In this document: positions 38,036 to 64,000 of the stretch, piece by piece | Layout of the letters: every line of letters begins with the position of its first letter | How positions within the stretch are numbered: position 1 is the first letter of the stretch | Assembly (NCBI GenBank): GCA_044892505.1 | Contig: CM097883.1 | Coordinates: 424,514,001-424,578,000, forward strand | Source: Schmidtea nova | Taxonomy: Eukaryota | Direction of reading: 5' to 3' | DNA length: 64,000 bases | Position numbers and translations under genes: made by a program | Notes under the pieces: model-generated | What the model saw: the letters and a program-made list of their open reading frames with translations, nothing else | The model's database searches: none | Told to the model about the DNA's origin: nothing

Positions 38036-38353
38036 GTTGTCTGAATATTATAACGATAAATTCGCTGGAGGACCTATCAACAATGTTATTTTATTTAGTC
38101 TACTCTTTATTATTATTAAACGAGATGTATACTAATGTTTTTAATTATCGAGTTCTTTACAAAAATATTTAACTATCTAACCATTGAAGACTCAAAAGAT
38201 TTATTGAACTAATTTTGTATTAATAAATGAATTTCCTAATGACTATAACAACTACAATACTAAATCTACATGACAACACTATTAACAAAATGAGACACTT
38301 CAGACTTCTTTAAAACATTTATTAAATTCAAAAATAGGTGGCCATTTATTCAA

Positions 38354-38830
38354 TTATCCATCTCCGGTCGTTTTTCCCCGATACGAAAATATCGATTTAA
38401 TTTGCAAATTTGTGTGGATTCCCGTGCTATTGGACGAGGCTTGCTGGAAGCGGATTCTCTCAGCTTCTCGAAGGGGTCGTATGGCTGTATTGAACTTGAA
38501 CCCCAATTCCTTGAAGGTAGAGGCTGGAATGAACCCCCAATAAATGACACATTTCGGGAATCCTCCTTTGTCCAACATCAGGATGAACCAGGCGGCGTGC
38601 CATGATTCGAATTCCTCGTCTGGAATGATTGGCCAACTAGCGCATCCCCGGTACCATACGTGGTGCCGTGGATGGTCCCATACTGTAAATGGACAGGCGG
38701 TTTCGAGCTCTCGGCGCCATGCCCACATCTTTTGATGGATTTGCTGTAAAATCTCGAAAGGAGCCGGCTTTAATGGGCTAACTCGGGCTCGTTCTTGTCG
38801 TTTTTTGATAGTGTATCTATGCTTAGTCAT
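38354..38830 (-). CDS. LTR-encoded 158-aa Trp/Cys/His-rich protein, unknown function
   Basis: Open 158 codons in a GC-richer island flanked by AT-rich spacers, AATAAA after stop, identical in both LTRs. Confidence 0.6.
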   Translation of the reverse strand: MTKHRYTIKKRQERARVSPLKPAPFEILQQIHQKMWAWRRELETACPFTVWDHPRHHVWYRGCASWPIIPDEEFESWHAAWFILMLDKGGFPKCVIYWGFIPASTFKELGFKFNTAIRPLREAERIRFQQASSNSTGIHTNLQIKSIFSYRGKTTGDG

Positions 38831-42093: not shown

Positions 42094-42211
42094 TGCTATA
42101 ATTACAGAGAAAAAAAAAATTTTTAATCGGTTTATATATCAGTTATTTTTGTTTATATAATAATTTTTGGGTATTTAACTGTACATATTATTTACATGAT
42201 CACTTTTCTTG

Positions 42212-43594: not shown

Positions 43595-43685
43595 TCTACA
43601 ATGATATATACACTTGATTTGTTATCTATTTTTTGATTTTTCTTGTTTTTGTTTTTACATATTTACAATTTTTCGCTTTATTTAT

Positions 43686-44167: not shown

Positions 44168-47100
44168 CTATATCACCATCACTGTCTTTCCTTCGTATCG
44201 CTCTTCATCTTCTATTTGTCTCCAAAATTCTTTACCTTTCGTCCTCCTTTGGAATTCTTTCTGTACTTCTTCCGGTAATTCTATACTGTAGTTCATAATC
44301 TTTATATCTGGCCAATGTGTTATTGGTTTCTTGTTGAATACATCATATATCCATATTATTAATAATACTGTTATTACTGGAATAGTTGCTGCTAGTATTC
44401 CCAGACCAATTAGTTCTCTAACTTGTTTGTTTACGTCCATCTTCGTAATTTCACTCTGGTTAATCATTGGTCCGTATTGTCCCTTTAGTTTATTTAGTAG
44501 TTGTTCTCGTTCTTGTTGTTTTCTTTTAACTTCTTTAATTACTTCTTCCGGCGTCCATCTTGCGTAAGGGTCTATTACTACTTGTTCCGCGTCCATTTGT
44601 TTCGTTGTCTGACTTAATTCTTTAAATTCGAGTTTTCTCACTTTCCCTTTGGACGTTGAGTTTACCGGTGTGTAGTACGTTTCGCATCTTTCCTGCTGAT
44701 TTCCTAATATGTCCGTCTTTTCTACCGCACATATCTCGTATTCGCTATTGAATTTCAGATTTCTGATACTTATTTCCTCTTTTCCTTTCACGTTTCCACA
44801 GTCTCGTGGCTGTCTTTCCCTTTGTTTCTGAACTATTACCCAACATATTTCTAACGTTTTATTGTCTATTCTCCATAGTATAAGAGTTGCTGTAGTATTC
44901 TTTTCGGTTCTTATTTGTATTTCTTGGTTTTTCTGTTGTCCATTAGGTTTAAAGGTAGTGGTATACCTCGCTTTTCCTTTGTTCCGTTGTCTTCTACTTT
45001 TTCGCGTTGTCTTTCCAACTCTTGTTCTGGTGGGTGTTTTATATAATTTGCATTCCAATTCATTTACTGTTATTTTGTCGCTTTTCCTAATCAGGCATAT
45101 TTCGTACGTTTGATTGCTTTCTAATCCTTCTATTTTTATTGTGGTTGTTCCTCTGTTTGTTCGACATTGCGGCGGTGTATTCTGGTTTGTTTTCTTTTCC
45201 TGCTTCTTCCAGCATACGCCTTTGACGTCCGGTTCTATTCCGGTTAACTCTAACATTATAGTTGTTCTCCGTTTGGTGCGTTTATTTCTTCTTCCTCGTC
45301 GTATGAACTTTATTGTTTCCCCAGGTTGAAATGTTTTACAAATTGTCGTTCCTTTCTTGTGTCTTTCTTTTTCTAGTAAACATAGTTCATACGTCCTGTC
45401 TGCTTTTACTTCTGATATCTTGGTTACTTTATTTGTTTTCCTTTTCCGACTCGTCTTTATTTCGCTTACGCCAATTTCTTCGTTGCTTCTGGCCCAACAC
45501 TTTGGGTTGGTGTTTTGGGTGTCGTTCATCTCTGTTACTGCCATTGTGTCAATGTCTATCCCTTCTTCTAACCGTTTTAACATTGTTAATATGAGTGCTA
45601 AACATAGTAATTCTGTTTGGTAGGTCACTCTTTCGGTCTCGTTTGTGGTTACTCTTGCTTCGGGCCTGTCTATGGTAATTTGTATAGTTGGCGTTGTTCG
45701 TCTGTCTATTGTCTGAGGTTTCTTGTTTTTTGTTCCTTGTGTCTCTGTTCCTCTACACTTTCCTACGACATAGTCTCCTTTGGATGGCTGCTGTATTGTT
45801 ATGGTTACTTTGGGTGTTAGGTAACTTGCACATGCAATTGTCTTATGTGATCTCGGATCCTTTGGTTTCCGAACGGTGCACATTCTGTACCAAGTATCTA
45901 GCTCTAGGTCATCGATCTCTATGATTTCTTGTTCGTATTCTGAGATCTTGCAATCCATTGGACTATTTTGTCCCGATATTTTGTCCTTTTTTGACCAACA
46001 TACTCGTTCGATTCCTTTTGCGTTTCCAATTTGTATTGTCGCTCTTTCTTCACATATCATTCCTTGAGTTGGACTAATTAAGGTCATGATTACCGTTAGT
46101 AATAATAGTTCTGGTTTAAAGAATGGGTTTATTGTTTGTTTGTAGCCTGTTCTTTTTATTTCGTTTTTATTTTTATAGTTGTTGTTTCTTTGTTTCCCAA
46201 ATTCATTGTTCTTATCATTTTTCTCTGTGTCCCTTCCTTTCTCTTCACTGTCCTCTTTATCTGATAACTCATGATCCTCTGGATTTTCTCGAGTACTATC
46301 GTCGTCGTTTCCTGTATTGTCACCTCCCTTTTGGTCGTTGAAAATGTCGTCCTCGACATTAATGGCTTCTATCATTTTTTCATACGTTATGGTTGTGAGT
46401 ATACTTGCTTCGTATTCTTGTGTTTCTGCCTGCTTAGGTATTTCCTTATCGGTTAATTTACAATCTAGAATCTCTTTCTTGGCTTTTATCCAATTATTAA
46501 GGTACGTTTTCATTAGTTCTTTCCATTTGTCCGTACGTTCTGTTTCCTTTGGGTTGTTTGTGAATCGTAAATCTTTTCTTCTCATGAAGATATCTATTAT
46601 CTTTGGCCATTTGTTTATTATTAATGCACACTTTATATACAAATTTTGGCCTTGTTCCATGCACTCGTTGATCCTGAATGCTGGTTCATTGGTGTTTGGG
46701 TTCATCCAATTGAGTATTGCTTCAGTTAGTTCAGCGTTATGCATCATGGAATGTACGCTAGCTTTTTTAACTGTCCTTGTAAGGTATTCTATTTCCTCCT
46801 GATTTGTGATTGTTTTTATGAAATTTATCACCTCCCAATTGTGCGCTAACAACGCTACGTCTAGTATTGAGCTGTCTTTGTTAGTTCTTCCCATGAGTCC
46901 TGCACCTGCTTCGTACAGTTCCTGTAACACTCGGGTTTTTGTGTTCGCTCTTGCTGCGAATATCATGAGGGTATCTCCCTTTTTATCTTTCATGTTCATG
47001 TCACTTCCGCAATCTTGCATCAACCGTGCAATTTCGACTACCCTCCTATTTTTTCCTGCTCGTAAGGCTCTATGTATTGGCAATACTCCATTCTTTGTTA

Positions 47101-50100
47101 ATAAGAAAGTCACTGGCATTTCTCTTTTTATGATCATCATATCGTTTTCATTGTAAGTTCCTTCCGCATATGCGTGTACCTTTTCCACAATTGATCCGAG
47201 TATCTCCAGTGTATGTTTAGAATTTTCGAATTCTGGTAATAGTTCTTTTGCTTTGTCCTGTATCGCATCTAACCTTTCTTGATATGGTACCTCTGCGCTG
47301 AAAAGTGGTGTAACTTTCCTTTTGCTTTCTCTTTCCTTTTGACATAGGAATTGTTTGCATTTTTCGGGGTGGTTTAATATGTCTATTAGTTTGTCATACT
47401 CTTCCTCCACCGTTTTGTATTTATCTTGAAAATTGGATATATCTTTGTAAGTTATCGTCTTGGTTAGCGATTTTGCACACCATTCCCTAATTTTCCTGAA
47501 TAATGCTTCTTTTTCACTTTCGAATTTACACTCCTCTTTGTTTTTGGAAATTATGATATTTCTTCTGTCTAATAACGTTAACAGTGCTTTCTGGTCACAA
47601 ACGAATTTTAATAGGAATTGTAATAACGTGTTTTGCCCTTCACTGTATACCTCGTTTATATTTAACACCCATGTATCATTTTCGGATCTTTTCCATTTTA
47701 TTAGCTTGCGTATTGTTTTGCAGTTACCGATTTTTATTGCCTCCTTGATTATATCACCTTTGATCAGTTCGTCTATTTCCCAAGTGGCCTTCTCGATTAT
47801 TTGTTTGAGCATTATCTGATTTGAGCTCCATATTGCGTGATTCAAGACTGTTTTGTTTTCTCTATCGCGTTCCGTCCAGTTGAAATCGGCATTTATCAAA
47901 AGGTCTATTATTGCTTTATCCGATTTGTAGATGGCTGCTATCATTAATGGTGTTTCTTGTTCGCTATTCCCAAAACCAAGGTGTTGGTTTGTTTCCTTAG
48001 CGATTTTTAGAAATTCTTTTACTCTCTCTACTTCTCCCCATTTTATGGCGTTATGTAATGCTGGTTGTCCTCCTATGTCTTGTAGTGAAAGTATTTCTGG
48101 AATTTTCTCCAGTAGTTCTGAAATGACTGGTTTTGTTGGTAGTCCCCTTGCGTAATCACTAATTATCGACTGAATATCTCTTAATATATCGTCTCTGACA
48201 TGCCATTTTCCCATTATTTCTCTGGCTTTTAGTACCATTTCCTTGTTTCTTTTTTCTTGTTGATTGTTTTCTGCTTCGGTACTTTCATTGGTTGCTCTGA
48301 GCATATTCATTCTGGCTGTCTGGGATCTGGTTATTATTCGTTCTTCTGGCGCTGTGGTTATTGTTTTTGGTACTTTCTTACATCTGCATGTATTAACGTA
48401 TATTGGTCGTATCAATGGTCGATTAACAAGTTTTACCTTCACATTGTTTTCCTTTTTGTATATAACTTCGTAAGGGCCTTTTCCTGGTCGTTGTAGTTTT
48501 TTAACGGTTCCTGGTATTATTTCTGGGGTTTCTATCATTACCCAATCTCCGGGTTTAAGATCATTTGTTTTAACATTTTTCTTTTGATCGTGTAGGTCCT
48601 TGTAACTTTCTTGATAAAACTTTATGTTTAGTTCTGCTGTCTTCCATATCTCTTGCATTCGTTCTTTGAATTTGGTGACGTAATCATCTTCCTCCATATA
48701 TTGAGACAAGGGTGGTTGATATTCAAGATCTATTGGCATATTGCATTCCCTTCCATACATTAATTGAAATGGACTCAATTTTGTTGCTGCGTGTATCGAC
48801 ATTCGGTATGCCATTAGACATAGCTTTACGTATTCATCCCAATCTGTTTGGTGTTTGCTTACATAATTGGATAACATTCGAATCAATGTGCCGTTAAATC
48901 TTTCCGTTTGTCCATTGGTTTGCGGATGATATGGTGACGTTCGTAATTTAGCTATTCTGAAGTAATTTGTTACTTCATCTAGTATTTCGCTCATAAAATT
49001 TGTTCCTTGATCTGTTAGTATTTGTTTCGGGGTTCCGTATCGACAACATATTTCTTCTACTAAAATTCTTGCTACGGTCTTTGCTTTTTGATCCGGCATC
49101 GCAAATGCCTCAGGGAATTTAGTCAAATAATCCGTTATTACCAATATATATTGATTCCCGTTTAAACTTTCTGGCAATGGTCCTATTACATCCATCGCAA
49201 TGGTAGTCATTGGTTCCGCTGGTATTGGCATGGGTTTTAAGGGATTTTTCCATTTCTTCCCACTATCCTTTCTTGTGGCACATGTTAAACAGTTCTTTAT
49301 CCATTCCTTTACGTCTTCGTCCATTGTGGGCCAATAATATTTTTGTCTCATGCGATCTAATGTTTTCTTATCGGACATATGTCCTCCTAGCTTTCCGTCA
49401 TGGTATTGAGTTATTATCTCTTTTCGTCTATTACCTGGCAGACACATTAATCGTTTTTCTCCATTTTGTATTAATAACCATCCTTTTTCTATTGTGTATC
49501 GATGTTGGTATTTCCTCATGTGTTCTTTTAACTCCGCATTGTCTTTGAATACATCCATATTCCGTGAGCTTAGGAATTCTATGATGGGTCTTAGTTCTTT
49601 ATCCTCTTGCTGATCTTTCTTTAACTCGCTGAAATCCAAATCCTCTGCTATCACTATGCATATTCTTTGCACTTCTGGGTCTGTTAGTTCTGGAAACGTT
49701 AATCTTGACATGCAATCTGCGTTGGCATTCGCTTTCCCTGATTTGAATTTTATATCTGGTGAATATTCTTGTAATTGCATCGCCCATCTCATTAATCTGC
49801 TGGATGTTTCCTTATGTTGTCCTAGCCATACAAGTGGTTGATGATCCGTGGTTATGCATATAACGTGTCCCCATAATAGATATTTAAAGTGTTTTATTGC
49901 TAATATTATTGCCAATGCTTCTCTTTCCGTTACCGAATAATTCTTCTCGTGTTTCTTGAATGTTCTGCTATAATATCCGATTACCCGCTCTTTTCCCTCG
50001 TCATCATATTGTCCTAACACTGCTCCTGCTGCATATCCACTTGCGTCGGTTGCGAGTAAAAATGGCTTCTTGAAATCCGGGTGAACCAATATTGGTGCAG

Positions 50101-53100
50101 TTATTAACTTATCTCGTAATGTTTCGAAGGCTGTTTGTTGTTCGCTTCCCCATATGAACGATACGTCTTTCTTTACTAGCTCCTGGATTGGTTTTGCAAT
50201 TCCTGCGTAATCCTTTATGAATTTTCTATAGTAACCGCATAATCCGAGAAATTCTTGGATCTGCGTTATCGTCTTTGGTACTGGACATTCTTTTACTTTA
50301 TCAATGTTTCTGGGATCTGGTTCCTTTCCTTTTGCGGACACAATATGTCCTAAGAATGTCACTTTCTCCTTTGCCCAATCGCATTTCGATGGTTTGAGCT
50401 TGAGTTTCCATTGTCTCAATCTAACAAATACATCTCTGATATCTTGGATGTGTTGTTCAAATGTGCTTGAGTAGATCAGTAGGTCGTCAATGTAAACCAT
50501 GCATTGTTTTATGCCGTGGGTAACGAAATTCATACATCTTTGAAATGATGCTGGCGCATTGGTTAGTCCAAATGGCATTTTCCTAAACTGGTACAAGTCT
50601 CTTCCGATAGTGAAAGCAGTTTTCTCTTTGTCTTCCTCTTTCATTTTAATTTGCCAGTATCCGCTTTTCAAATCCAATGATGTAAAATATGCCGCTCCTT
50701 GTAATGTCAATAACATCTCGTTGATGTCCGGTAATGGGTATGTATCCCTTTTTGTAACTGCATTTAATCTCCGATAATCAATACAAAATCGTTGTGTTCC
50801 GTCTTTCTTTTTCACCATTACAACTGGGAACTGCCACGGTGAGCAGCTTGGTTCAATTACTTCTGCGTCTAGCATTTTCTGTACTTCTGCTTCTGCTACT
50901 GATTTTTGCGCTTCAGCTAACTTGTATGGTCTTAACGCAATAGGCGTTTCGTCTGTTAGTGGAATCGTATGTAGTGTGACGTCGCATGTCCCTAGATCTA
51001 AATCGGATGCTGCGAATATGTCTTTATATTCTATCAGTAATCTTTCTAGCTGTTTCTTTTGGTCCTCATTTAATAGTTGGCTATCAATGTTCCAAGTGGG
51101 TTCCTCCTCTTTTACTCCTTCTTTTATTGGTATTTCGATATCCATCATTGGAGTTAGTTTACCTAATCTTTCATTTTCATAAATTATTTTATCCTCTTCA
51201 TCGAAATTTACTACATTTATTGGGATTTCTCCGTTGTCATTCGCACTCACTAATCCCCTTGCCATTGGCAACGACTTTCTCTTTTCAAATCTTTTACTGG
51301 GTTCAAAGATCATGTCGCCTTCTATTGTAGGATCTATTTTTACGAAACATATTTTCTCTCTCCGTGCTGGTACGATTATTTGTTTCGAACTTGTTACTTT
51401 TGCTTCTATTGCGCATATCTGTCCTGTCCTATCCTTTAGTCTCATTGTTCCGAGATCAATAACTATTTCTTTAAATAATGCTGGCATCAGATCCGTGCCT
51501 ATAATGCATGGTACGCTCAGTGCTGGTATTACTGCTACGTACGTTTCGATTTCCGTGTTTTGATGTTTTATCTTTACCCACCATCTTCCGGCAACTTCTA
51601 CTACTTCTTTACTGCATGCTATTACGTGAACGTTGGTTCTCTCGATATCCCGTCTTTGTTCTTGTGGTATCCATTTTATATCTATTGCTGAGATATTTGC
51701 TCCTGTATCAATCATCGCTTCTATTTCCCTTCCGTTAATTTCGATTGTTGTAGTTAATACTGGACCGGTGTTTGATGACATTACTGCAATTGTATGTGAG
51801 TCTCCTTGCGGATCTACGCTTCTGCACCGTCTCGTTCTATAGTCTTCTGGTATCATAGGATATATGTTTGTCATCGGCATCATTTGCATTGTATTTTGTC
51901 TCATCCCTGGTGTTGGTTCTTGGTACATGGTTGGTGGGGGTGCGTAACATTTCCACATTTCCGCTGGATTCTTTTCGACATACTGTGGTACTTGATTTTT
52001 AAATACTTGACCTCCTTCGTTATCATCATCATCGTCGTCACTGGAATCGTCTTGGGTTCTGTACCCTTTCATTCTTTCCCATAGTCCTTTTCTCTCTTTC
52101 TTGAGTCGTTGTCTTGCTTGCTCGTTATTCATTATCTTTTTAAATTTTCGTCCCACCTCTTCATCGGTTCCTTTCATTTTTGCCAGTATTTTTAGGAGTC
52201 TCTTTATTCCGTGAATATCTTTTGAATGACCGTGTAATACCATTGTTTTAGCCAAAAATGGTAAGAATCCTACCACCAATTTCCAATTTACTTTCTTTTC
52301 TCTTTTATAGATGTCAAAACAGGCTAACATTTGAGTTATTATTACCCGTATTATTTGTATAATTAGTATAACACCAAGTATTCCTGCCATCATTTGTCCA
52401 AATATTAAAAATCTTCCCCACATCGCTTTCATCATGTTTTCCGTTGCCTTCTTAAAGTGGGCTGGTGACAATAATAATTCGTAATTTGGTCCACCTTGGT
52501 AATTTGTTCCTCCTGTTATTGTTACAATACTGGATAACACCGCTTCTCGTCTTGCCGGAAATAGTATGTTTTGTCTTGCTGCTTCTAAATCCTTTGCACT
52601 ATAGAATCCCATATTGCTTACATCTACGTCTTTAAATTTTCTTCCTTTTGATAGTTGCATCAATTCAAATTCCCTTGGTGCTGGTACCTCTGTTCTTGAC
52701 GGAAACATAACCCAATTCCCGTCTGGATTTTGGTATAGTGGTCCATATGCGTTGCTGCAATTGAAAGGGTTTGGTTCGAAACTTACTGGATTTATGATTC
52801 TTGTCACTGGTTGTACATATCTTACTTTCCCTTTATATTCGATTTCTAGTTCGTTAGTACACTGACCTGGTTGTAGTTTTGTCATTGTTGCCACCTTTGT
52901 GTTCGTCTTTTTACATATGTATACGTACATGACCTCTCCGACTACCCTTCCAAAATGACCTTCTCTTAATGGTAATAATGGCATTGCACTATCCGGGTTT
53001 GTGATTGCTACCGCTAGTTTTGTCTTTAATATTTCCCTATTTAATATGCAATCGTTGTTAATTAAATCGTAATACACTTTTTGTAGTGACGCTTGTCCTC

Positions 53101-56100
53101 TATGGAACAGAAAATCCATTTTATTGTTCATGTAAAGGTGTAATTTAACATCGTTCGTGTGCACTTTGCGTTTCGCACTAGGTACTTCTTGTTTTGATAC
53201 AAAAATGCCGGGGTAGTTGGTTTCCAACATAGCTACTCCGCATTTCAAGGCTGTTTTTCCTTTTACAAACCTCATTCCGATATCTGCATCTGAGGTAATT
53301 AGTACCGTTGGTGTATTTCTCATTTTAATTTGTTTTTCTTGTGTTCGGGTTTCAATCTTTTTCTCTCCCCGTACTGTGTCTTGAAGTATTTTTCCTCTTG
53401 CTGCCTCGTCTTCTTCTTCCTCTTGGAAGGTTTTCCCTTGTATCTCATCGAATTCTGCTTCCTTTAACAGTTGTAGTTGACATTCCTTTCCTCGTATCTG
53501 GTAGGTTAAGGTTGACATACCGGTTTGGCAAGTGTTTGACTCGATTTTGCACATTGGTAGGGTTTTCATTTCTCCCGTTGTTGGATCGAAGAATGCCTCG
53601 TACGTTTTTAATTCCACTGTATAAGTATCTATTACTACTAGGTTGGTTGCTGCTACTCCGAATATTGGATATGTTGCTCCTTGGCAATACCCTTCTCCTC
53701 CCGTAATAGCTCCTGCTACATAATATGTTTGTTGCAATATCACTCCCGTTTTTCCTCTTATCTTTACTCTATCTCTAGTCTCTACTTCTCCATGTTTAAA
53801 TAATTTTTCACAGTCTTCTCCTTGCAGCATTACCGATTCTCTTTCCGTTCCTGGCATCACGATTGCTGAATAATGGCGGTGTCCACAATAAAAAGCAAAT
53901 CTGGTTTTATAAACTTTGCATTCCCTGACCATTGTTCTTATCAGTTCAGCTTCCTGATATACGTGGTATAATTGTCTCTTTTTTAATGTTTTTAACTCCG
54001 TTGGGGTTGCGTCCTTACATTGTTCTGTCCCTCGTAGTGAATATTTCTCACCTAATGCCATTTGATCACAATCGAATACTTCAAATGCTGTTGCTCCGTC
54101 AGTACTAATCATCCATATTAACATCATCATAATGATAGAACTCAGGTTTAGTGATGATTTCCCGTTTCCTGTTCCCGACTTTTCCTTTTCCAATTCTCCC
54201 AATATCTCTTCGAATTTCTTTTTCAAATTTTTGGCTTGGTTTTTCTTTTGGTTCGTTTTTGTGAATGTTTCCCATCCTCCTTTACTGATGATGTACGGTT
54301 CTATTTCTTTCTCTATAATTTTGGCTGTATTCTTTATATGTCTTTCGAGTGCTGTAGGTTTCAGTCGACCTCTACTCAGTGTCAACAGATTGTAAATTGT
54401 GTATGCCATAGCTATTAAATATTTGTTATCCGTCTCTGCTCCTTCCGTTAACTTCTTTATCAACATCGTGGTTCCTTGCCAATCTAGGTGGTTTGACCTT
54501 GTCTTCTCTTTTATTAGTTCTGGTAGGATTGGTGCGATGGCGCTATGCAGTGATTTCGCCCTTTCGCTTATTTCGTTTATTCTCCACCATTTCTTTAATT
54601 CTGGATCGATTATTGCCAGTATTTCCATTAACATCTTTGATATCCATTCCTCGCCTTGGTATGTTTGTGTTGTTTCTTTTTCTTTCGTTTCGGCTATTTT
54701 ATTTAGTTTCTTTAAACACAAATCCCATTGATCCCGTCTTTTTTCCTCTCTTGATTTTATAACTACATTTGCTGGATCCATCTTGGGTCTACCTCTAGGT
54801 CGTTTATCCATTGTCGTGCCCGTTTCTACCAATCTTGTTTCTCGTCCAGTTTCTTCTGTGACGTCTCTTGGTTCATTGGCTCTTTCTTCTAACCATCTTT
54901 CCATTTCTTGTGTGAATTGTACATTTTCTACATTTGCCCTCCTTGCTTCCTCTTCTGCTATTTCATTTACTTCTTCGATGATTATTTCTTGTTCAACTTC
55001 ATCTTCGGTGTTGGTTACCGGTATTGCTGTTGGTAATTCTTGAATTCTTTCGAAAATATTATCATCCTTCTCTTTTGTTAGCTCTATTAACTCCTCTAAC
55101 ATATCATCGCTATCTGTAAAAATTTCGTCTACATCGTATGGTTCTGGTGGTGTTCTTTCTCTTGTCTCTCTTGGTGTTGTTTTAGCTTGTTCTGAGCTTG
55201 TTCCTGGAGTCATTACCGATTTCATTGGGCTCGGCGTACTCATACTTCCTTTTGGTTTCTTTTCCTCTTTCAATTTCAATGGTTGGCCTGCTATTGCTGC
55301 CACTGTCAATGTATTTGCGATATCTAATTGCGCTGGCGTTATTCCAATTTCCAAGCTGTTATCTAATGATCGTCCTTGGTGTTGTAAATGGAATGGTGGT
55401 TCATATCTCAATTTCTTTTTAATGTCTCGAACTTTCTCCGCTATCCCTACCCAAAACTCTTCCTTTTCTTGGTTCGGATATACTATTCTTAGGTGTACTT
55501 TCTGTGGCGATTCCTGCGAGAATTCTTGGTTTCTCCATTTTTTAATTACGTGATCCAATTGTTCTGGACACCACTCGTTAACTCTTTTGTATTCGGCGAT
55601 TGCTTTTGCTACTTTACGCAAGCATGTTATGTCTTCTCCATTAACTACGAAAAAATCTGCGAGACCTTTTACTACTTTTCTCTTGCCGTGCGCATTGGTT
55701 TTTAATATTTCGACAAATTCTTCCGTTTTTTGTTTCTCTCTTTCCAACCACATGGTTGCCGTTTCTGGTCCGTCTAAATCCGCTGGCATGGCTTTTCTTG
55801 TTACCATACAGACTCTTCCGGTTTCCGGTTTGTGATCGTCTTCTATGCCTATTTCATATTCTTCTTCGTACTCGCCTGCTTTTGGTTCCCAACATTTTCC
55901 TCGTTCGTTCCATTTCTTTTCTACGGGTGTTAGTAATCGTCTGTTGAGATTGAGTTCTTCTAATACATCTTCCCATTCTGGCCAAATCCGCCAATTTCGA
56001 TAAATGTCTACTATTTGTTGTAATTTATGCACAACTTCTTTTTGTCGTTCCCGTTCTCTTTTCTCATCCTTAGCAGTTTCTCTTGGTGTATCGTCCATTC

Positions 56101-59100
56101 TGATAACGTGGATGGTTTGATGATTATCCCATATACCAATTTTATATAGCCGTCTTTCATCGTGATCCCATAATACATGTTCGTTGTATTTCATGATTAT
56201 GTCATCTTCCCATTCTTCTTCTGGTTCTCTTTGTAATAGTGTCTCGTTGATGACATTTACTAATTCTTTTATGGTACAATCTGCTACCACTTCAATTTCT
56301 TTGGTATCCTCATTAGGTAACTCTACTGCAATTTTCAGATCTGTTATTTTCCCTTGTCTGAACATTGCTTTTCCCATTTTGGCAATTACTTTTCCGTATG
56401 AGATCTGTGACCATCTCGTGTGACTTGTGTCACGTATGCACTCGATACATCGTTTCAACTTTTCGTATTCGCTTCTCATTAACTCCTTTCTATGTTTTTT
56501 GATTTGTGGGATGATTTGTTCTATCATGGAATTTAGATTTCCTCGTAAGATTCGTCCTTTTTCGTATTCTAACCGTGGTTTTATCTTCCTCTCGAAACAC
56601 ATATTTGCTTCCTTTGCTACTTCTTGTAGGTTCTCTTCTCTCTTATCATCGCATATCGATAATGTTGTCACCTCTCCTGGCCATATGCCTGTTTCTATCA
56701 AATGCGTCCTTTTCTTCACTAGTCCATTCTGTGAATAGAGGAATTTGTTTTTATATGAACTCCCTAATCTATCTTCTACCCATTGATAAATATCTTCCGT
56801 GAGTGGAGTTTTGATCCAAATCCTTGGCAAACATGTTTTTATCTCTATTAGGATTATATATTCATGGAGTGGTTCTTTTAATAATTTTCCTACGTATTGG
56901 CTTAGTGTTTCTACTTCCCGGCCTGGTAACCACTCTTTATAGTTCATTTGTAATATCGCTCTCATGAATTTCCGATAGTGTTTCTTGTCGATGAACTCCT
57001 CATTATATATTACTTCTAGCGCGTTATCTAATAATTTCTGGATCTCGTCCTCTTTTACTTGAATAGTTTCTGGTGTCTTTACTACTTCTATCTTTTTGTC
57101 TTCAATTTCCGGTTCGTTTAGCATATCTCCGGCTAGACTACTGACGTCACTATCCTCTTCGTCATCTGAAAAATTCTTTGCCTGGCCTCTCAACATGTTA
57201 ATGTGTTTTATCTGGTTGATTTCACTTGGTGTATTTTCCGTTGGTCTTGTTTCACTTTTAATAGCTTTTTGTGTTGATTCACTCTTGTCGTCTACTACTT
57301 CGACCTTTCTCAATTTTCGTTCTAACTCGTCTATTTCTCCCAACCGTCTTCGTATCATTTTCCCTTTAAATATTCGACTGATTCGTGTTTCGTGACGCAC
57401 TGGCGATGGAATTCCTTCTGGTTCTATTTCCTTGATTACCATCACATTTCTTTTTGTCTCTACTACTCCCATGTTTTCCCATGTATCCGTTAGTTTCAAT
57501 TTTACTTCTGGTGCATCTTCTATTTTTAGGAATGCTTCTCTGGGCAGTTTCGTTACTCCTGGAGCCATTTCATTCACTTTGTTGAACAATGTTCCTACTT
57601 CTTCCTTTATGTTATATTGGAATCGAAACATATGACCGTTTGGCAGGATTACCATCATTCCCTTTTTCCAAATCATTCTTTTCTCTTCCTGGTTTGCCTC
57701 TGTTTCCACTTCCTTTTCTATTTCTGTTTCTTCGCTTCCTGGTACTATTTCTTTTCGATTTTCGTTATTGGTTGGATTCAGGTTTGTTGGATTTATTTCT
57801 GGCACAGTCTCTTTCTCGTGGGTATTTGCTTGATTGGTTGCTCTCATCATATTAATTCTTAGAGGTTGTCGTTCTCTTTCTTGCTGTTTTTGTTCCTCTT
57901 CTCTTTGTACTCTTGCCCATTCCTGAGCATGTCGTGCTTGACTTTCCCGATTCAATCGTTCGTTTTCGCTTTCTATTTTTCTCATCATATTGATTTGTTG
58001 TTGACCTGTTTGCGGATTTCCTCTGGTTGTATTGTTTATCAGCTCCGTCAATCTTTGAACCTCTTGCATTAAATGTATCTCTTTAGTGGTATTTTTATTT
58101 TGGTTATTATTATTACTATTTGGTTGGTTTCCGTATTCCGGTTGGTTTCCATTATTTGGCTGATTTCCATAATTCTGTCGGTTTCCACCAGTTGGTTGGT
58201 TTCCATAGTTTTGTCGGTTTCCGGTATTCTGCCAGTTTCCTCGTTGATTGCTTCTTTGTCCGCAATTTCTTGATAGGTGTCCAGGTCGTCCACAATTAAA
58301 ACAGGTTATTGTGTAACATCTGCTCTCTGAATGCCCTTTTACTCCACATTTTCCACAATTCAAGTTCTGATAACATTCTTGTTGCCAATGTCCCAATTTC
58401 CCACATGTTTTGCATTGTTTCGTTGGTCCTTGGGGGTTGTAATTGTTTTGATTTCCGTAATTTGATACTTTATTCCCTTCATTCCTTCGTTGCGGTGGTG
58501 GTCGGTTTAATTGTTGTGAATTTGGAATGTGGTTATTCAGGTTCACTTCTTGTTCGTTTTGTGCTGTATCCATAGCTAAATAGATTCTACCATCATTTCC
58601 TATCATGTGTAGTTCAAATCTATTAGCTGTTTCTAATGCTTGGTCGATGGTTTTACAACCTTGACATCCAACTTGCGCTCTTATGTCGGGTCTTCTTAAT
58701 CCTCCCACAAAGATAGCTGCCATTAATTCCTCATTTATTGGACTGTCTTGATTGAAAATCAACTTTGCTAACTTTTTCAATTCGCTTGCATATACCGCAT
58801 TCGATTCATTTATCTTTTGTTTCCTCATTGAGAATTCCGTAAATGCCTCATTCAATACTTTATTTATTCCGAAGGTTTGTTGGAAAAAGTCCTTTATCGC
58901 TGACCAACTTGTAGGTGGATTAATTCCATTTTTTGCTTCCAAATATAGATCTAATGCGCTATCTTTTAAATATAGCTGAATTCTGCTTACAGTTGTTTCT
59001 GGTTTCCACTTGCATACTTCCACGAATATGCCAAATTCCTTTAAGAAAGTTTCTAATTTACTCGCATCTCCATTAAACGGTTCTCCGGAAAATTTGTCTT

Positions 59101-59125
59101 TTATCTCTTCTCTGGGTTCGCTCAT
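44168..59125 (-). CDS. 4985-aa Gag-Env-Pol-cargo polyprotein in one uninterrupted ORF
   Basis: Single frame in ORF track; domains listed separately. Confidence 0.95.
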   Translation of the reverse strand: MSEPREEIKDKFSGEPFNGDASKLETFLKEFGIFVEVCKWKPETTVSRIQLYLKDSALDLYLEAKNGINPPTSWSAIKDFFQQTFGINKVLNEAFTEFSMRKQKINESNAVYASELKKLAKLIFNQDSPINEELMAAIFVGGLRRPDIRAQVGCQGCKTIDQALETANRFELHMIGNDGRIYLAMDTAQNEQEVNLNNHIPNSQQLNRPPPQRRNEGNKVSNYGNQNNYNPQGPTKQCKTCGKLGHWQQECYQNLNCGKCGVKGHSESRCYTITCFNCGRPGHLSRNCGQRSNQRGNWQNTGNRQNYGNQPTGGNRQNYGNQPNNGNQPEYGNQPNSNNNNQNKNTTKEIHLMQEVQRLTELINNTTRGNPQTGQQQINMMRKIESENERLNRESQARHAQEWARVQREEEQKQQERERQPLRINMMRATNQANTHEKETVPEINPTNLNPTNNENRKEIVPGSEETEIEKEVETEANQEEKRMIWKKGMMVILPNGHMFRFQYNIKEEVGTLFNKVNEMAPGVTKLPREAFLKIEDAPEVKLKLTDTWENMGVVETKRNVMVIKEIEPEGIPSPVRHETRISRIFKGKMIRRRLGEIDELERKLRKVEVVDDKSESTQKAIKSETRPTENTPSEINQIKHINMLRGQAKNFSDDEEDSDVSSLAGDMLNEPEIEDKKIEVVKTPETIQVKEDEIQKLLDNALEVIYNEEFIDKKHYRKFMRAILQMNYKEWLPGREVETLSQYVGKLLKEPLHEYIILIEIKTCLPRIWIKTPLTEDIYQWVEDRLGSSYKNKFLYSQNGLVKKRTHLIETGIWPGEVTTLSICDDKREENLQEVAKEANMCFERKIKPRLEYEKGRILRGNLNSMIEQIIPQIKKHRKELMRSEYEKLKRCIECIRDTSHTRWSQISYGKVIAKMGKAMFRQGKITDLKIAVELPNEDTKEIEVVADCTIKELVNVINETLLQREPEEEWEDDIIMKYNEHVLWDHDERRLYKIGIWDNHQTIHVIRMDDTPRETAKDEKRERERQKEVVHKLQQIVDIYRNWRIWPEWEDVLEELNLNRRLLTPVEKKWNERGKCWEPKAGEYEEEYEIGIEDDHKPETGRVCMVTRKAMPADLDGPETATMWLEREKQKTEEFVEILKTNAHGKRKVVKGLADFFVVNGEDITCLRKVAKAIAEYKRVNEWCPEQLDHVIKKWRNQEFSQESPQKVHLRIVYPNQEKEEFWVGIAEKVRDIKKKLRYEPPFHLQHQGRSLDNSLEIGITPAQLDIANTLTVAAIAGQPLKLKEEKKPKGSMSTPSPMKSVMTPGTSSEQAKTTPRETRERTPPEPYDVDEIFTDSDDMLEELIELTKEKDDNIFERIQELPTAIPVTNTEDEVEQEIIIEEVNEIAEEEARRANVENVQFTQEMERWLEERANEPRDVTEETGRETRLVETGTTMDKRPRGRPKMDPANVVIKSREEKRRDQWDLCLKKLNKIAETKEKETTQTYQGEEWISKMLMEILAIIDPELKKWWRINEISERAKSLHSAIAPILPELIKEKTRSNHLDWQGTTMLIKKLTEGAETDNKYLIAMAYTIYNLLTLSRGRLKPTALERHIKNTAKIIEKEIEPYIISKGGWETFTKTNQKKNQAKNLKKKFEEILGELEKEKSGTGNGKSSLNLSSIIMMMLIWMISTDGATAFEVFDCDQMALGEKYSLRGTEQCKDATPTELKTLKKRQLYHVYQEAELIRTMVRECKVYKTRFAFYCGHRHYSAIVMPGTERESVMLQGEDCEKLFKHGEVETRDRVKIRGKTGVILQQTYYVAGAITGGEGYCQGATYPIFGVAATNLVVIDTYTVELKTYEAFFDPTTGEMKTLPMCKIESNTCQTGMSTLTYQIRGKECQLQLLKEAEFDEIQGKTFQEEEEDEAARGKILQDTVRGEKKIETRTQEKQIKMRNTPTVLITSDADIGMRFVKGKTALKCGVAMLETNYPGIFVSKQEVPSAKRKVHTNDVKLHLYMNNKMDFLFHRGQASLQKVYYDLINNDCILNREILKTKLAVAITNPDSAMPLLPLREGHFGRVVGEVMYVYICKKTNTKVATMTKLQPGQCTNELEIEYKGKVRYVQPVTRIINPVSFEPNPFNCSNAYGPLYQNPDGNWVMFPSRTEVPAPREFELMQLSKGRKFKDVDVSNMGFYSAKDLEAARQNILFPARREAVLSSIVTITGGTNYQGGPNYELLLSPAHFKKATENMMKAMWGRFLIFGQMMAGILGVILIIQIIRVIITQMLACFDIYKREKKVNWKLVVGFLPFLAKTMVLHGHSKDIHGIKRLLKILAKMKGTDEEVGRKFKKIMNNEQARQRLKKERKGLWERMKGYRTQDDSSDDDDDDNEGGQVFKNQVPQYVEKNPAEMWKCYAPPPTMYQEPTPGMRQNTMQMMPMTNIYPMIPEDYRTRRCRSVDPQGDSHTIAVMSSNTGPVLTTTIEINGREIEAMIDTGANISAIDIKWIPQEQRRDIERTNVHVIACSKEVVEVAGRWWVKIKHQNTEIETYVAVIPALSVPCIIGTDLMPALFKEIVIDLGTMRLKDRTGQICAIEAKVTSSKQIIVPARREKICFVKIDPTIEGDMIFEPSKRFEKRKSLPMARGLVSANDNGEIPINVVNFDEEDKIIYENERLGKLTPMMDIEIPIKEGVKEEEPTWNIDSQLLNEDQKKQLERLLIEYKDIFAASDLDLGTCDVTLHTIPLTDETPIALRPYKLAEAQKSVAEAEVQKMLDAEVIEPSCSPWQFPVVMVKKKDGTQRFCIDYRRLNAVTKRDTYPLPDINEMLLTLQGAAYFTSLDLKSGYWQIKMKEEDKEKTAFTIGRDLYQFRKMPFGLTNAPASFQRCMNFVTHGIKQCMVYIDDLLIYSSTFEQHIQDIRDVFVRLRQWKLKLKPSKCDWAKEKVTFLGHIVSAKGKEPDPRNIDKVKECPVPKTITQIQEFLGLCGYYRKFIKDYAGIAKPIQELVKKDVSFIWGSEQQTAFETLRDKLITAPILVHPDFKKPFLLATDASGYAAGAVLGQYDDEGKERVIGYYSRTFKKHEKNYSVTEREALAIILAIKHFKYLLWGHVICITTDHQPLVWLGQHKETSSRLMRWAMQLQEYSPDIKFKSGKANANADCMSRLTFPELTDPEVQRICIVIAEDLDFSELKKDQQEDKELRPIIEFLSSRNMDVFKDNAELKEHMRKYQHRYTIEKGWLLIQNGEKRLMCLPGNRRKEIITQYHDGKLGGHMSDKKTLDRMRQKYYWPTMDEDVKEWIKNCLTCATRKDSGKKWKNPLKPMPIPAEPMTTIAMDVIGPLPESLNGNQYILVITDYLTKFPEAFAMPDQKAKTVARILVEEICCRYGTPKQILTDQGTNFMSEILDEVTNYFRIAKLRTSPYHPQTNGQTERFNGTLIRMLSNYVSKHQTDWDEYVKLCLMAYRMSIHAATKLSPFQLMYGRECNMPIDLEYQPPLSQYMEEDDYVTKFKERMQEIWKTAELNIKFYQESYKDLHDQKKNVKTNDLKPGDWVMIETPEIIPGTVKKLQRPGKGPYEVIYKKENNVKVKLVNRPLIRPIYVNTCRCKKVPKTITTAPEERIITRSQTARMNMLRATNESTEAENNQQEKRNKEMVLKAREIMGKWHVRDDILRDIQSIISDYARGLPTKPVISELLEKIPEILSLQDIGGQPALHNAIKWGEVERVKEFLKIAKETNQHLGFGNSEQETPLMIAAIYKSDKAIIDLLINADFNWTERDRENKTVLNHAIWSSNQIMLKQIIEKATWEIDELIKGDIIKEAIKIGNCKTIRKLIKWKRSENDTWVLNINEVYSEGQNTLLQFLLKFVCDQKALLTLLDRRNIIISKNKEECKFESEKEALFRKIREWCAKSLTKTITYKDISNFQDKYKTVEEEYDKLIDILNHPEKCKQFLCQKERESKRKVTPLFSAEVPYQERLDAIQDKAKELLPEFENSKHTLEILGSIVEKVHAYAEGTYNENDMMIIKREMPVTFLLTKNGVLPIHRALRAGKNRRVVEIARLMQDCGSDMNMKDKKGDTLMIFAARANTKTRVLQELYEAGAGLMGRTNKDSSILDVALLAHNWEVINFIKTITNQEEIEYLTRTVKKASVHSMMHNAELTEAILNWMNPNTNEPAFRINECMEQGQNLYIKCALIINKWPKIIDIFMRRKDLRFTNNPKETERTDKWKELMKTYLNNWIKAKKEILDCKLTDKEIPKQAETQEYEASILTTITYEKMIEAINVEDDIFNDQKGGDNTGNDDDSTRENPEDHELSDKEDSEEKGRDTEKNDKNNEFGKQRNNNYKNKNEIKRTGYKQTINPFFKPELLLLTVIMTLISPTQGMICEERATIQIGNAKGIERVCWSKKDKISGQNSPMDCKISEYEQEIIEIDDLELDTWYRMCTVRKPKDPRSHKTIACASYLTPKVTITIQQPSKGDYVVGKCRGTETQGTKNKKPQTIDRRTTPTIQITIDRPEARVTTNETERVTYQTELLCLALILTMLKRLEEGIDIDTMAVTEMNDTQNTNPKCWARSNEEIGVSEIKTSRKRKTNKVTKISEVKADRTYELCLLEKERHKKGTTICKTFQPGETIKFIRRGRRNKRTKRRTTIMLELTGIEPDVKGVCWKKQEKKTNQNTPPQCRTNRGTTTIKIEGLESNQTYEICLIRKSDKITVNELECKLYKTPTRTRVGKTTRKSRRQRNKGKARYTTTFKPNGQQKNQEIQIRTEKNTTATLILWRIDNKTLEICWVIVQKQRERQPRDCGNVKGKEEISIRNLKFNSEYEICAVEKTDILGNQQERCETYYTPVNSTSKGKVRKLEFKELSQTTKQMDAEQVVIDPYARWTPEEVIKEVKRKQQEREQLLNKLKGQYGPMINQSEITKMDVNKQVRELIGLGILAATIPVITVLLIIWIYDVFNKKPITHWPDIKIMNYSIELPEEVQKEFQRRTKGKEFWRQIEDEERYEGKTVMVI
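44346..46115 (-). other. C-terminal type I membrane module: internal signal peptide, four Cys-containing FN3-like repeats, TM
   Basis: PELLLLTVIMTLISPTQG signal; repeats CW...I.(G/D/N)L...(T/S).YE(I/L)C...C..Y.T at ~45810-46060, 45320-45510, 45030-45265, 44665-44895; TM LIGLGILAATIPVITVLLIIWIY 44346-44413. Confidence 0.6.
46815..48085 (-). other. Ankyrin-repeat region (two clusters)
   Basis: GQPALHNAIKWG, QETPLMIAA, NKTVLNHAI (47790-48085); GVLPIHRAL, GDTLMIFAAR, DSSILDVAL (46815-47097). Confidence 0.8.
48380..49420 (-). other. Integrase (HHCC, D,D(35)E, GPY/F)
   Basis: HDGKLGGH...CLTC; MDVIGPL (D 49190), TDQGTNF (D 49010), GQTERFN (E 48902); GKGPYEV. Confidence 0.95.
49700..50070 (-). other. 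RNase H
   Basis: LATDASGYAAGAVLGQ; NYSVTEREALAI; TDHQPLVWL. Confidence 0.95.
50330..50970 (-). other. Reverse transcriptase (Ty3/gypsy type)
   Basis: FCIDYRRLN, YPLPDINEML, LDLKSGYWQI, MPFGLTNAPASFQR, VYIDD (50483-50494). Confidence 0.97.
51430..51760 (-). other. Aspartic protease
   Basis: EAMIDTGANISAI (DTG 51701-51709), CIIGTDL. Confidence 0.95.
52230..54147 (-). other. Envelope glycoprotein, chuvirus-G / herpes gB-like (class III) type, with signal peptide and TM
   Basis: Signal LSSIIMMMLIWMISTDGATA; FDC..SL..C; ECKV..R..FYCG; CG..L.ETNYP.IFV; Y.NNK; LYD/YYD...C.L; GE..Y..C; C.NEL...PVTRI; GFYS..DL...I.FP; WGRFLIFGQMMAG TM. Confidence 0.85.
54263..54650 (-). other. Bcl-2-like helical domain
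   Basis: BH2-like IEPYIISKGGWETF at 54263-54301, preceded by ~120 aa of predicted amphipathic helices; BH1 NWGR not conserved. Confidence 0.6.
55290..57665 (-). other. Up to four ubiquitin-like (beta-grasp) domains
   Basis: Best: LKIAVELPNEDTKEIEVVADCTIKELV...IMKYNEHVL...RLYKIGIWDNHQTIHVI (56095-56340); weaker at 57430-57665, 56655-56855, 55290-55500. Confidence 0.5.
58262..59125 (-). other. Gag: capsid domain plus three CCHC zinc knuckles
   Basis: PFNGD...W..IKDFF...RKQKINES..YA.EL..LA...FVGGL; CKTCGKLGHWQQEC, CGKCGVKGHSESRC, CFNCGRPGHLSRNC (58262-58414). Confidence 0.92.
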
Positions 59126-60105
59126 TTCAATTCCGCTGTCTGTAGTTATTTTACTTTCGTTTCCTCTTGTTTCTAGTTCACTGTTAGGTTCGTCACTCGA
59201 ATTTCGGTCGATCTCAGTTTCTTTTGCTGATTCGTTATCTGATGCTTTACTATCGTTATCGGTATCGTCACTTTCTGTTTCTTGTTCTACTTCGTCTTCT
59301 ATTTCTTCTATATAATCGTTGTTGGTTTTGTCGACTTCTATTTCACTTATTGGGTTTCTCTCGGGTTCTGCTTAATTTTCTTTGTTGCTTGAACTGTTGC
59401 TTGTTACTGATAGTTTATCGTTTTCGATAATCGACTTTTGTATTATTATCTGCCTTGCTTTACTTCCTTTTAGGCCTTTCTGATTATTATTCTTGGTAGC
59501 TTTATTCTTTTCTGCTGGTTTTATTATGACACTCTTTTCTCCTTTTCTCAACGGGATTACTTTTGTATACTCAATTTTCCTGTCTTATCGTGTTCCGATT
59601 CTTTTCTTCCTTGGTTGCTTGGTTTGGTTTGATTGATTTATCTAAAATACAAATGTCACTTCAACGATACTCTATTGTTATCGTTGCGCTTTTATTCCCT
59701 TTTTACGGGACTTCTCATTACTGGGTTTCTATTATTTTTCCCCATTCCCAGATTCCCCTTTATTTAAGTCTATTTAAATTATCTATATACTAGTCACAAT
59801 TATCTATTTAGTCATAACAATTATCTATCGGTTACTAAAATACATCAATTATTTTTCCCGCGGTCTCCCAATTTATTTGTCGTTCGAACGCTCTAATTCC
59901 CTGAGTCATTTGACTCGATTATTATTTTATCATCTCTTTATCTTTCTCTCTGCTAGCCTCTAATTATTAATTCTGCCGGTCTTTCCGGTCAGCTCCTATT
60001 TCTCAATTCTACTTGCATGCATTATTTTAGGTCGCATAATCAGCTTTACTCGCATTTCTCAATTCCTGGTGCGCACTATTCTCATTATCGTCGACGATCA
60101 CAACT

Positions 60106-61218: not shown

Positions 61219-61680
61219 TTATAAATAAACTACAATTCTATCAGCTACAGAGAAATTGCACATGGGGCACTTATCACACTTATTCGCACAGTTTTTACAA
61301 AATCGAAAATGTCCGCATGGTAGAAACATTATTTGGATTTCACTGTCTTCGCATATGTAACATCGTTTATATTGTTTTGTTGCCTCGACCCCTTGCGACA
61401 TCCATCGGTTATAAGTTAGGTTTAACTGCTGTTCTATATGTCGGCATCTGATATTCAACTCGGCATCCTCTAATCGTGCTTTGTACCATTTATATCGCGT
61501 ATTTATATCGAGTTTATTTACTTTCTCTATGATTTTTATTAACTCAGTTGTTTCCTCCGTTTGTGTCGTAGGTTCCTCATATTCGGATGCTCTTATTCGG
61601 GTTATTTTTTCGCAGACTGTCTCAAATGTATCGTTCTCGGTGTTGAAAAATTCCTCGATTTCTTTCAGTTTTTCCTCCAT
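61219..61680 (-). CDS. 153-aa protein with C-terminal IAP-type RING, no BIR domain
   Basis: CYICEDSEIQIMFLPCGHFRFCKNCANKCDKCPMCNFSVADRIVVYL-stop. Confidence 0.85.
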   Translation of the reverse strand: MEEKLKEIEEFFNTENDTFETVCEKITRIRASEYEEPTTQTEETTELIKIIEKVNKLDINTRYKWYKARLEDAELNIRCRHIEQQLNLTYNRWMSQGVEATKQYKRCYICEDSEIQIMFLPCGHFRFCKNCANKCDKCPMCNFSVADRIVVYL

Positions 61681-61933
61681 TTCCTAGATAATTTATTTAA
61701 TTACTGTGTTAATATTATTCGAAAAGTAGTACTGTGTTTCGTTTCTGACAGTTTTATAGCCTCCCCCCGTGTTTCGGTAAATTGTCGTCCCGACCTGTTA
61801 TTTATGAATGCATTTGTTCAATTTATCTACTAATTTGTTTTAATTTGTTTTAATACTATTTCTACTCACAAAATTCTGACTTTAAATTTCTCTGTTGTCA
61901 TTGGGTTCACCTTTTCCGCATAAAACAAAGTTG

Positions 61934-61951: not shown

Positions 61952-62519
61952 AATTTATGCTGGGATTATGGGTGGGTTTTAAGTAATTCAAATAAATAGT
62001 TAATCATTAATTGAACGACTATTGATGAGTACGTATACTAGGGATTCCACGCCCATAACCATACATAACATGACTACTACACGCGTATGCCCTTGACTAT
62101 TCCCTACTAGCCAAGTTGGTACTGCATACGGTGGTGGAAAAATGATGGGCAGGTGAGCTTTGTTGCCAAAACTACTCCCCATTTATCTTCCCTCGGGTCC
62201 TTGCTGCCGATAGAAGGTCTTACGCATTTACATTCTATGGATGTTCGCTTCCTACTGAATTTTATACTACACATCCTTATGATCTATCACACGCTTTTCC
62301 CCAATTTCACTATCCTTAACTGATCTACAAGGTAATTAATCAGCTCCTACGTAGAAACGGTCGGTTTGAGAAAAATGCGGCTGCGATTTTTTACTTCTAG
62401 GATTTAGCTATTGTTATTTTATTTTATTTAGTGAATTCACACGATGAGAGAAAAATTTTACACAGTAATACTTTTATTAAAATAATAAAGACAGGTTGTT
62501 ATTTTACATTGAGGTTTTC

Positions 62520-63104
62520 CTATTCAAACTCCAGGCTAATCTCCTGGATTAACTCTGCTTCGGTTAAGGAGTTCAGGTGGTGGATTTGTTCGTCCAGGCG
62601 CTTTGCAAATTCTCGGCGACGACGGCGCTGTCGCGATCCCATTCGATGTTTTCGAAGCTGTTGGTTTATGACCGGTGCTGACGCTATTATTCTCGGGGGA
62701 TCACTGAGAAAAATAGGCAAATCTTCCGTTGTAAGAGTGGGTGCCATGATGATATCATCTTCTGTCCCGCAAGCGACATCTTGGTGAGTGCATTGTATCC
62801 AGCGCTGAGCCGTGATCGGCCGGATTAGCGCTCGCAATTCGGAGTCGATGTAACTTCTTGTTACTGCGTTCAGGCAATTTCGGAGTTCCCGCTGGACGGC
62901 ATCTAGTTCCAATTTGGTTGCGGCCAGTGCTTCCTGCATCCGCTCAAGTTTTTTCGACTGGTCCTTCATTTGTCCGGGCGAGAACCACTTCGCCCTTAAT
63001 TCATCATTGGCGACCGTGAGTCGCTTGATCTGTCGCTGCTGGTCCCTCAACTTCCTTTCTTGGATTTGTCCCATGATTTTCTTGGAATTTTCTGTAGTCG
63101 GCAT
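62520..63104 (-). CDS. 5' LTR copy of 194-aa ORF
   Basis: Identical translation to 37451-38035. Confidence 0.55.
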   Translation of the reverse strand: MPTTENSKKIMGQIQERKLRDQQRQIKRLTVANDELRAKWFSPGQMKDQSKKLERMQEALAATKLELDAVQRELRNCLNAVTRSYIDSELRALIRPITAQRWIQCTHQDVACGTEDDIIMAPTLTTEDLPIFLSDPPRIIASAPVINQQLRKHRMGSRQRRRRREFAKRLDEQIHHLNSLTEAELIQEISLEFE

Positions 63105-63422
63105 GTTGTCTGAATATTATAACGATAAATTCGCTGGAGGACCTATCAACAATGTTATTTTATTTAGTCTACTCTTTATTATTATTAAACGAGATGTATA
63201 CTAATGTTTTTAATTATCGAGTTCTTTACAAAAATATTTAACTATCTAACCATTGAAGACTCAAAAGATTTATTGAACTAATTTTGTATTAATAAATGAA
63301 TTTCCTAATGACTATAACAACTACAATACTAAATCTACATGACAACACTATTAACAAAATGAGACACTTCAGACTTCTTTAAAACATTTATTAAATTCAA
63401 AAATAGGTGGCCATTTATTCAA

Positions 63423-63899
63423 TTATCCATCTCCGGTCGTTTTTCCCCGATACGAAAATATCGATTTAATTTGCAAATTTGTGTGGATTCCCGTGCTATT
63501 GGACGAGGCTTGCTGGAAGCGGATTCTCTCAGCTTCTCGAAGGGGTCGTATGGCTGTATTGAACTTGAACCCCAATTCCTTGAAGGTAGAGGCTGGAATG
63601 AACCCCCAATAAATGACACATTTCGGGAATCCTCCTTTGTCCAACATCAGGATGAACCAGGCGGCGTGCCATGATTCGAATTCCTCGTCTGGAATGATTG
63701 GCCAACTAGCGCATCCCCGGTACCATACGTGGTGCCGTGGATGGTCCCATACTGTAAATGGACAGGCGGTTTCGAGCTCTCGGCGCCATGCCCACATCTT
63801 TTGATGGATTTGCTGTAAAATCTCGAAAGGAGCCGGCTTTAATGGGCTAACTCGGGCTCGTTCTTGTCGTTTTTTGATAGTGTATCTATGCTTAGTCAT
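63423..63899 (-). CDS. 5' LTR copy of 158-aa ORF
   Basis: Identical translation to 38354-38830. Confidence 0.55.
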   Translation of the reverse strand: MTKHRYTIKKRQERARVSPLKPAPFEILQQIHQKMWAWRRELETACPFTVWDHPRHHVWYRGCASWPIIPDEEFESWHAAWFILMLDKGGFPKCVIYWGFIPASTFKELGFKFNTAIRPLREAERIRFQQASSNSTGIHTNLQIKSIFSYRGKTTGDG

Positions 63900-64000
63900 G
63901 ATTCCAAAACGATGCTGAATTTTATAATAGTTACAATTTACATCAATAATTAATCATAGTAAATGTTATCTCTCATCGTGATATCTTTATTATTTGCCTA

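Follow-up and report, generated by a model that had tools for sequence, protein, structure and literature searches.

The closest described relatives of the locus studied here are the planarian Burro1-4/GYPSM1 elements, which carry a Ubi2/SUMO-like motif (PF11976) between MATH and BCL-2, and of which a variant is known with a 5,140-residue ORF1 and the MATH domain in an accessory open reading frame (ORF) (PMC6431247). We analysed a 64,000-nucleotide stretch of the Schmidtea nova genome (hereafter the window: GCA_044892505.1, contig CM097883.1, forward-strand positions 424,514,001 to 424,578,000) that contains a Burro/GYPSM1-type giant Ty3/gypsy retrotransposon, so classed by matching it to the published description of Burro rather than to reference sequences. 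Between its Gag and Env lie four segments, A to D, which are likely to be divergent, non-conjugatable domains of ubiquitin-like (UBL) type, and their number differs between related families of elements.

The original prediction, made from the DNA sequence of the window, had placed an array of four such segments here. Four segments of 72–84 residues are indeed present on the minus strand, in frame in the ORF at 44168–59371, with Retrotrans_gag and zf-CCHC matches on one side and Monjiviricetes_fusion (E = 1.5e-71) on the other:

57422..57664, minus strand: segment A, probable UBL (residues 570–650), restricted to the window's family
56867..57061, minus strand: helical segment preceding B, modelled at low confidence as three helices; also conserved in P0001 and in family 2 (see below)
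56648..56866, minus strand: segment B, probable UBL (residues 836–908)
56357..56629, minus strand: helical segment preceding C; helices at predicted local distance difference test (pLDDT) values of 51–77, in register with the segment preceding D (hhalign E = 0.005)
56093..56344, minus strand: segment C, UBL (residues 1010–1093)
55517..55759, minus strand: five-helix bundle preceding D, from the predicted structure
55289..55504, minus strand: segment D, UBL (residues 1290–1361), positional equivalent of the published Ubi2/SUMO-like motif

They do not form a tandem array, being separated by gaps of about 185, 100 and 195 residues, with a helical segment before each of B, C and D. The turn by which they had been recognized is LPN in A and C and YPN in D but is lacking in B, and the GI motif, GIW or GIT in B, C and D, is replaced by MGV in A. 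The absence of a terminal di-glycine is borne out: GG does not occur across residues 500–1697, and the sole instance within residues 500–1760, at residue 1698, falls inside the Bcl-2-like domain. The C-terminal di-glycine of the conjugatable modifiers (ubiquitin, SUMO, NEDD8, ISG15) is thus missing.

Both C and A have at least 150 matches at 92–100% in their own genome (150 scored of 815 and of 559 candidates, respectively); the window's family is family 1. Family 2, whose frames run to about 5,000 codons (150 scored of 801 candidates, four copies read), has B, C, an in-frame MATH between C and D, and D, with no A. Family 3, of some 3,400 codons (four copies read), has two UBL-like segments, f3a and f3b, each after a helical part; Bcl-2 (E = 0.00034) and Env follow. 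The first of the two segments matches Rad60-SLD at E = 0.0098. The UBL number is therefore four, three and two in families 1, 2 and 3. Outside these, three word-index homologue searches found no relative, and a full HMMER search returned a sole homologue, P0001, with B, C and MATH. In P0001, as in family 2, MATH follows C in the same frame, whereas the window's family encodes it separately; the L-x-Y-x-G/N and GIW pattern of B is kept across three lineages.

The UBL assignment was assessed chiefly with pooled profiles, in which the segments collectively exceed chance. A profile of 13 Burro sequences, from which ubiquitin was excluded, retrieved 364 PDB sequences at E ≤ 10; among the 60 shown, 59 carry names of ubiquitin, ubiquitin variants or UBLs, the other, 5n9v, not being judged. 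We count here Affilin, Hub1 and elongin B, which we take to be ubiquitin variants or UBLs. The best single-domain match was 2mlb (E = 1.3e-7); the ubiquilin-2 UBL was retrieved at E = 3.2e-5. This signal derives largely from family 3, without which UBLs make up six of seven PDB matches, the best at E = 0.018. Family 3's two segments alone outscore all 490 shuffles reported (of 500) against ubiquitin, and A–D pooled are matched by nine of 500 shuffles, although these pooled tests are inflated because the segments were picked by eye for their UBL likeness. Pairwise z-scores link ubiquitin with f3a (3.5–5.8), f3a with f3b (7–8, clear duplicates) and family 3 with D (4.6–6.1 for three of the four family-3 UBLs), and more weakly B with f3a (about 3) and C with the D of family 2 (4.6). 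D also ranks first of 61 sequence windows for two of three family-3 UBL probes, and C scores 0.90 to the ubiquitin/Rad60-SLD clusters in the Atlas, its family 2 orthologue matching OTU1_UBXL (E = 0.018). Weak matches to topoisomerase, XerA, RBL4, DUF816 and RAMP were taken as chance.

The two AlphaFold models, of A–B and C–D, both of low confidence, have their elements in the right order for a beta-grasp (D being modelled as E-E-H-E-E at pLDDT 30–50), and weak matches of UBL kind account for 23 of 42 Foldseek rows with the A–B model and 14 of 40 with the C–D model, seven of the latter being ATG5. The arrangement of B, C and D suggests a repeated unit of helical segment plus UBL that probably arose by internal duplication; mutual alignment with hhalign brings the C and D units into register over 88 columns (E = 0.005). 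In a tree of 14 segments B, C, D and f3b each cluster by position. Since its deep branches are unsupported, and A and ubiquitin sit on long branches, we claim no order of duplication and no donor. Ratios of nonsynonymous to synonymous substitution (dN/dS), from three non-independent pairs that set the window copy against related copies, are 0.16–0.28 for A, 0.12–0.13 for B, 0.05–0.10 for C and 0.08–0.10 for D. All four lie below 0.3, a sign of purifying selection; compared with linkers at 0.14–0.81, C and D are clearly constrained.

What such domains might do is suggested by the company they keep:

44168..59371, minus strand: polyprotein frame of 5,067 codons, Gag, accessory region, Env, protease (PR), reverse transcriptase (RT), RNase H (RH), integrase (IN), ankyrin, FN3-like and transmembrane parts; first Met at residue 83
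52304..54079, minus strand: Env, a mononegavirus-type fusion glycoprotein (the Monjiviricetes_fusion match above, PF24664)
54242..54739, minus strand: Bcl-2-like domain, between D and Env (Pfam Bcl-2, E = 0.088 in the window copy, 0.00034 in family 3)
42212..43621, minus strand: accessory TRAF-like ORF with zinc fingers and MATH (MATH_2, E = 2.3e-21), its MATH sharing 35% identity with the one that family 2 carries in frame
61219..61683, minus strand: accessory RING ORF (zf-C3HC4_3, E = 9.5e-12)

Pfam matches along the frame follow the order Retrotrans_gag, zf-CCHC knuckles, fusion protein, aspartic protease, RT, RNase H, integrase and ankyrins. A short motif, R/Q/H-I-N-M-M/L, occurs four times in the window protein (shuffle mean 0.1, for a pattern fitted post hoc), four times in family 2, once in P0001 and not at all in family 3, with looser versions near the PR and RH/IN borders. 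It marks candidate sites for the protease:

57185..57205, minus strand: candidate protease site between A and B; P0001 and family 2 keep the motif in register
57839..57859, 57977..57997 and 55796..55816, minus strand: further candidate protease sites with the same motif

We tentatively favour the view that the segments are integral, non-conjugated UBL docking modules in accessory proteins released by the element's own protease. Cuts near residues 507, 725 and 1188 would yield three products: A; B with C (and with MATH in family 2); and D with the Bcl-2-like domain. These could bind host proteins of ubiquitin signalling or cell death, or the element's TRAF and RING products, and so might keep the host cell alive and tolerant during expression of the element. 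Survival-signalling docking seems the most likely role because of the TRAF, RING, Bcl-2-like and ankyrin company and because, according to the available part of PMC13465017, which cites Lee et al. 2026, the BIR-RING protein of Burro1, a captured IAP, protects planarian stem cells from apoptosis.

A number of results weigh against this interpretation. No segment is significant by itself: in Pfam, C reaches only Ubiquitin_4 at E = 0.039 and A, B and D match no UBL family; with single-class PDB profiles C has 2mlb at E = 0.36 as its best match and A, B and D again have no UBL. A profile of ubiquitin and the family-3 UBLs does not lift A–D above the shuffled null in the polyprotein, a ubiquitin probe ranks them only 14th to 52nd of the 61 windows, and A has no sequence link to the other segments (maximum z 2.9). 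The structural models are of low confidence (mean pLDDT 39.7 for A–B and 53.0 for C–D, 30–55 in the UBL parts), every Foldseek E-value is at least 0.29, and unbiased VIA wide searches, their lists filled by the helical parts, show no UBL in the top 50; a second VIA look at the C–D model likewise found none. The hhalign tests for duplication were negative for five of the six module pairs, although one alignment that misplaces a family-3 UBL and another that is poorly aligned make them weaker tests. By dN/dS, A is indistinguishable from its downstream linker (0.23–0.25), and the cleavage motif, besides lacking in family 3, was defined on the same data. A beta-grasp fold appears very probable for C and, to the same degree, for D, probable for B and slightly less so, yet still probable, for A. 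Segment C, singled out in the original prediction (there 56095–56340) as the most convincing, is accordingly among the best supported, but shares that place with D.

This raises the question of whether only C and D are UBLs, A or B or both being other small alpha/beta domains that look alike by eye. Segment A would fit such a view, its best Atlas score being 0.82 to no named family, with no UBL from the PDB, the longest branch in the tree and no link to its neighbours; so would B, which lacks any single-class match, has one VIA row and is modelled at pLDDT below 55. Yet every one of the 23 VIA rows that fall within A alone is a beta-grasp protein, and B combines a pattern found in three lineages with a z-score of about 3 to f3a, so that we think this rather unlikely. 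A somewhat better case, though still an unlikely one, can be made for UBLs that act in cis for replication, scaffolding Gag or nucleocapsid (NC) or integrase, or aiding the folding of the 5,000-residue polyprotein. The model here is coronavirus nsp3, whose Ubl1 and Ubl2 serve the nucleocapsid and PLpro. The five-helix bundle preceding D could then be a TFIIS-N-type module: its weak whole-domain matches, below threshold, are to TFIIS-N-type domains including the integrase-binding domain (IBD) of HRP2. The FxGF (TND-binding) motif is absent before Env in the window protein.

The original prediction had also raised processing by a host protease and recruitment of proteasome, deubiquitinase (DUB) or E3 partners. 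Cellular ubiquitin insertions in some pestiviruses do serve as host-DUB cleavage signals, the pooled profiles retrieve the UBLs of ubiquilin and RAD23, which would suit proteasome-recruiting degrons, and D ends in IAG, conserved in families 1 and 2. However, DUB cleavage is unsupported because there is no di-glycine and because the element encodes an aspartic protease of its own, whose candidate site motif recurs and flanks the modules; in family 3, moreover, the glycine of IAG does not occupy the equivalent end. Proteasome binding in the manner of ubiquitin is modestly disfavoured, since the Leu8 and Ile44 columns of the Leu8/Ile44/Val70 hydrophobic patch are mostly replaced in A–D (P, K, P and P for Leu8; K, Y, K and Q for Ile44, in an alignment of 10–21% identity). 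Cleavage signals or degrons are accordingly quite improbable. Hardly less speculative is a bolder version of the docking role, in which the duplicated helical-plus-UBL module would mimic SHARPIN/HOIL-1L-like ligase scaffolds and assemble TRAF, IAP-RING and Bcl-2-like products into a transposon-encoded survival complex in planarian stem cells, the bundle preceding D perhaps being a TFIIS-N/IBD-type module. If so, that bundle would be the element's own equivalent of the LEDGF integrase tether.

The element as a whole is a recent insertion of 28,353 bp, slightly below the 30 kb quoted for Burro1, with two 3,284-bp long terminal repeats (LTRs) that are 100% identical, have TG...CA ends and are flanked by a 4-bp ATAT target duplication:

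36889..40172, minus strand: 3' LTR, 3,284 bp, TG...CA, 100% identical to the 5' LTR, with the ATAT target duplication
61958..64000, minus strand: 5' LTR, continuing 1,241 bp beyond the window end, read with the adjoining locus L028

Within the LTRs are two ORFs of 198 and 176 codons (62520–63116 and 63423–63953, repeated at 37451–38047 and 38354–38884, minus strand) with no clear Pfam family. Compared with the common class of 5,140 codons, seen in many genomic copies of this family, the polyprotein frame starts 73 codons late, a shortening that lies upstream of the first Met (59125–59371). Past the ankyrins its C-terminus (44171–46100, minus strand) looks like a receptor-like membrane protein: a hydrophobic stretch lies near residue 4422 and a transmembrane segment near residue 4988, and there are several repeats of FN3-like type (Pfam E = 0.066). 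Two more accessory ORFs without a clear Pfam family lie on the minus strand at 40377–40970 (197 residues, with a hydrophobic stretch) and 41032–42138 (368 residues, coiled-coil-like), and the leader that separates gag from the RING ORF (60084–60764) holds three families of short tandem repeats (units of about 41–55 and 30–31 nt). Labels given by eye to other parts of the window are hAT-transposase-like fragments next to the insertion site, a tandem repeat of 30 nt and an exon that looks transporter-like (35621–36824 and 17849–18313, plus strand; 21418–23051; 28505–29269, minus strand).

No BIR domain was found in the RING ORF of the window copy. Elsewhere, a high-copy 399-codon BIR-RING ORF stands beside a TRAF-like ORF (L033:751-1947; 150 scored of 1,295 candidates) and is probably the IAP of another Burro family. 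A further high-copy element (L058:3157-8253, L039, L040), presumably BEL/Pao-like by its motifs, has a long ORF in which a Gag/protease-like region is joined to HECT-like and Hsp70-like fragments and to a near-perfect ubiquitin with LRLRGG at its end (150 scored of 2,223 Rad60-SLD candidates, mostly in frames of 500–1,800 codons); the ubiquitin is possibly a DUB-cleavable leader on Gag.

Among other known systems, the UBL-bearing proteins most like these segments are those with integral (type II) UBLs, such as the SHARPIN/HOIL-1L LTM-UBL, ATG5, ubiquilin and RAD23, which lack di-glycine and are embedded in larger proteins. SHARPIN/HOIL-1L, the top Foldseek row with the A–B model (E = 0.29, 124 columns), and ATG5 (E = 0.41 with the C–D model) also share the helical segment plus UBL, but the matches are non-significant, at 8–12% identity, and show homology to no single family. 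Coronavirus nsp3, with several divergent, non-conjugated UBLs in a polyprotein that a viral protease cleaves, belongs to an unrelated virus class and offers an analogy only. The GAG-ENV-POL errantiviruses of Platyhelminthes, Nematoda and Bryozoa (PMC13524379) have the same gene order and a class III-type Env; unlike here, the word ubiquitin is absent from the main text of that paper in its available part.

Since the element type and one UBL motif had already been described, the advance stays incremental until a host partner can be identified. What is new is mainly that there are several predicted UBLs per element, in a number that depends on the family. We found no mention of this in the literature searched, and it is not addressed in the available portions of PMC13524379, PMC11410931 and PMC8532177, though several may already appear in Lee et al. 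2026 and Grohme et al. 2018. Some 800 unannotated residues now resolve into predicted UBL modules, the helical segments that accompany them and candidate protease sites, defined pieces that lend themselves to expression and to a search for partners. Compared with Burro1-4/GYPSM1 (PMC6431247), the window element has the same single ORF of about 5,000 residues with Gag, the Bcl-2-like domain, an in-frame Env between gag and pol, the PR-RT-RH-IN order and ankyrins, the same multi-kb LTRs, and MATH/TRAF and RING cargo; with MATH in an accessory ORF, its family resembles the published variant. The differences are that the TRAF ORF lies downstream of ORF1 rather than upstream, that the helical-plus-UBL repeat and its variation between two, three and four are not mentioned in the Burro section of that paper, and that in place of the one motif named there the window element has as many as four, of which B and C lie upstream of where MATH would stand.

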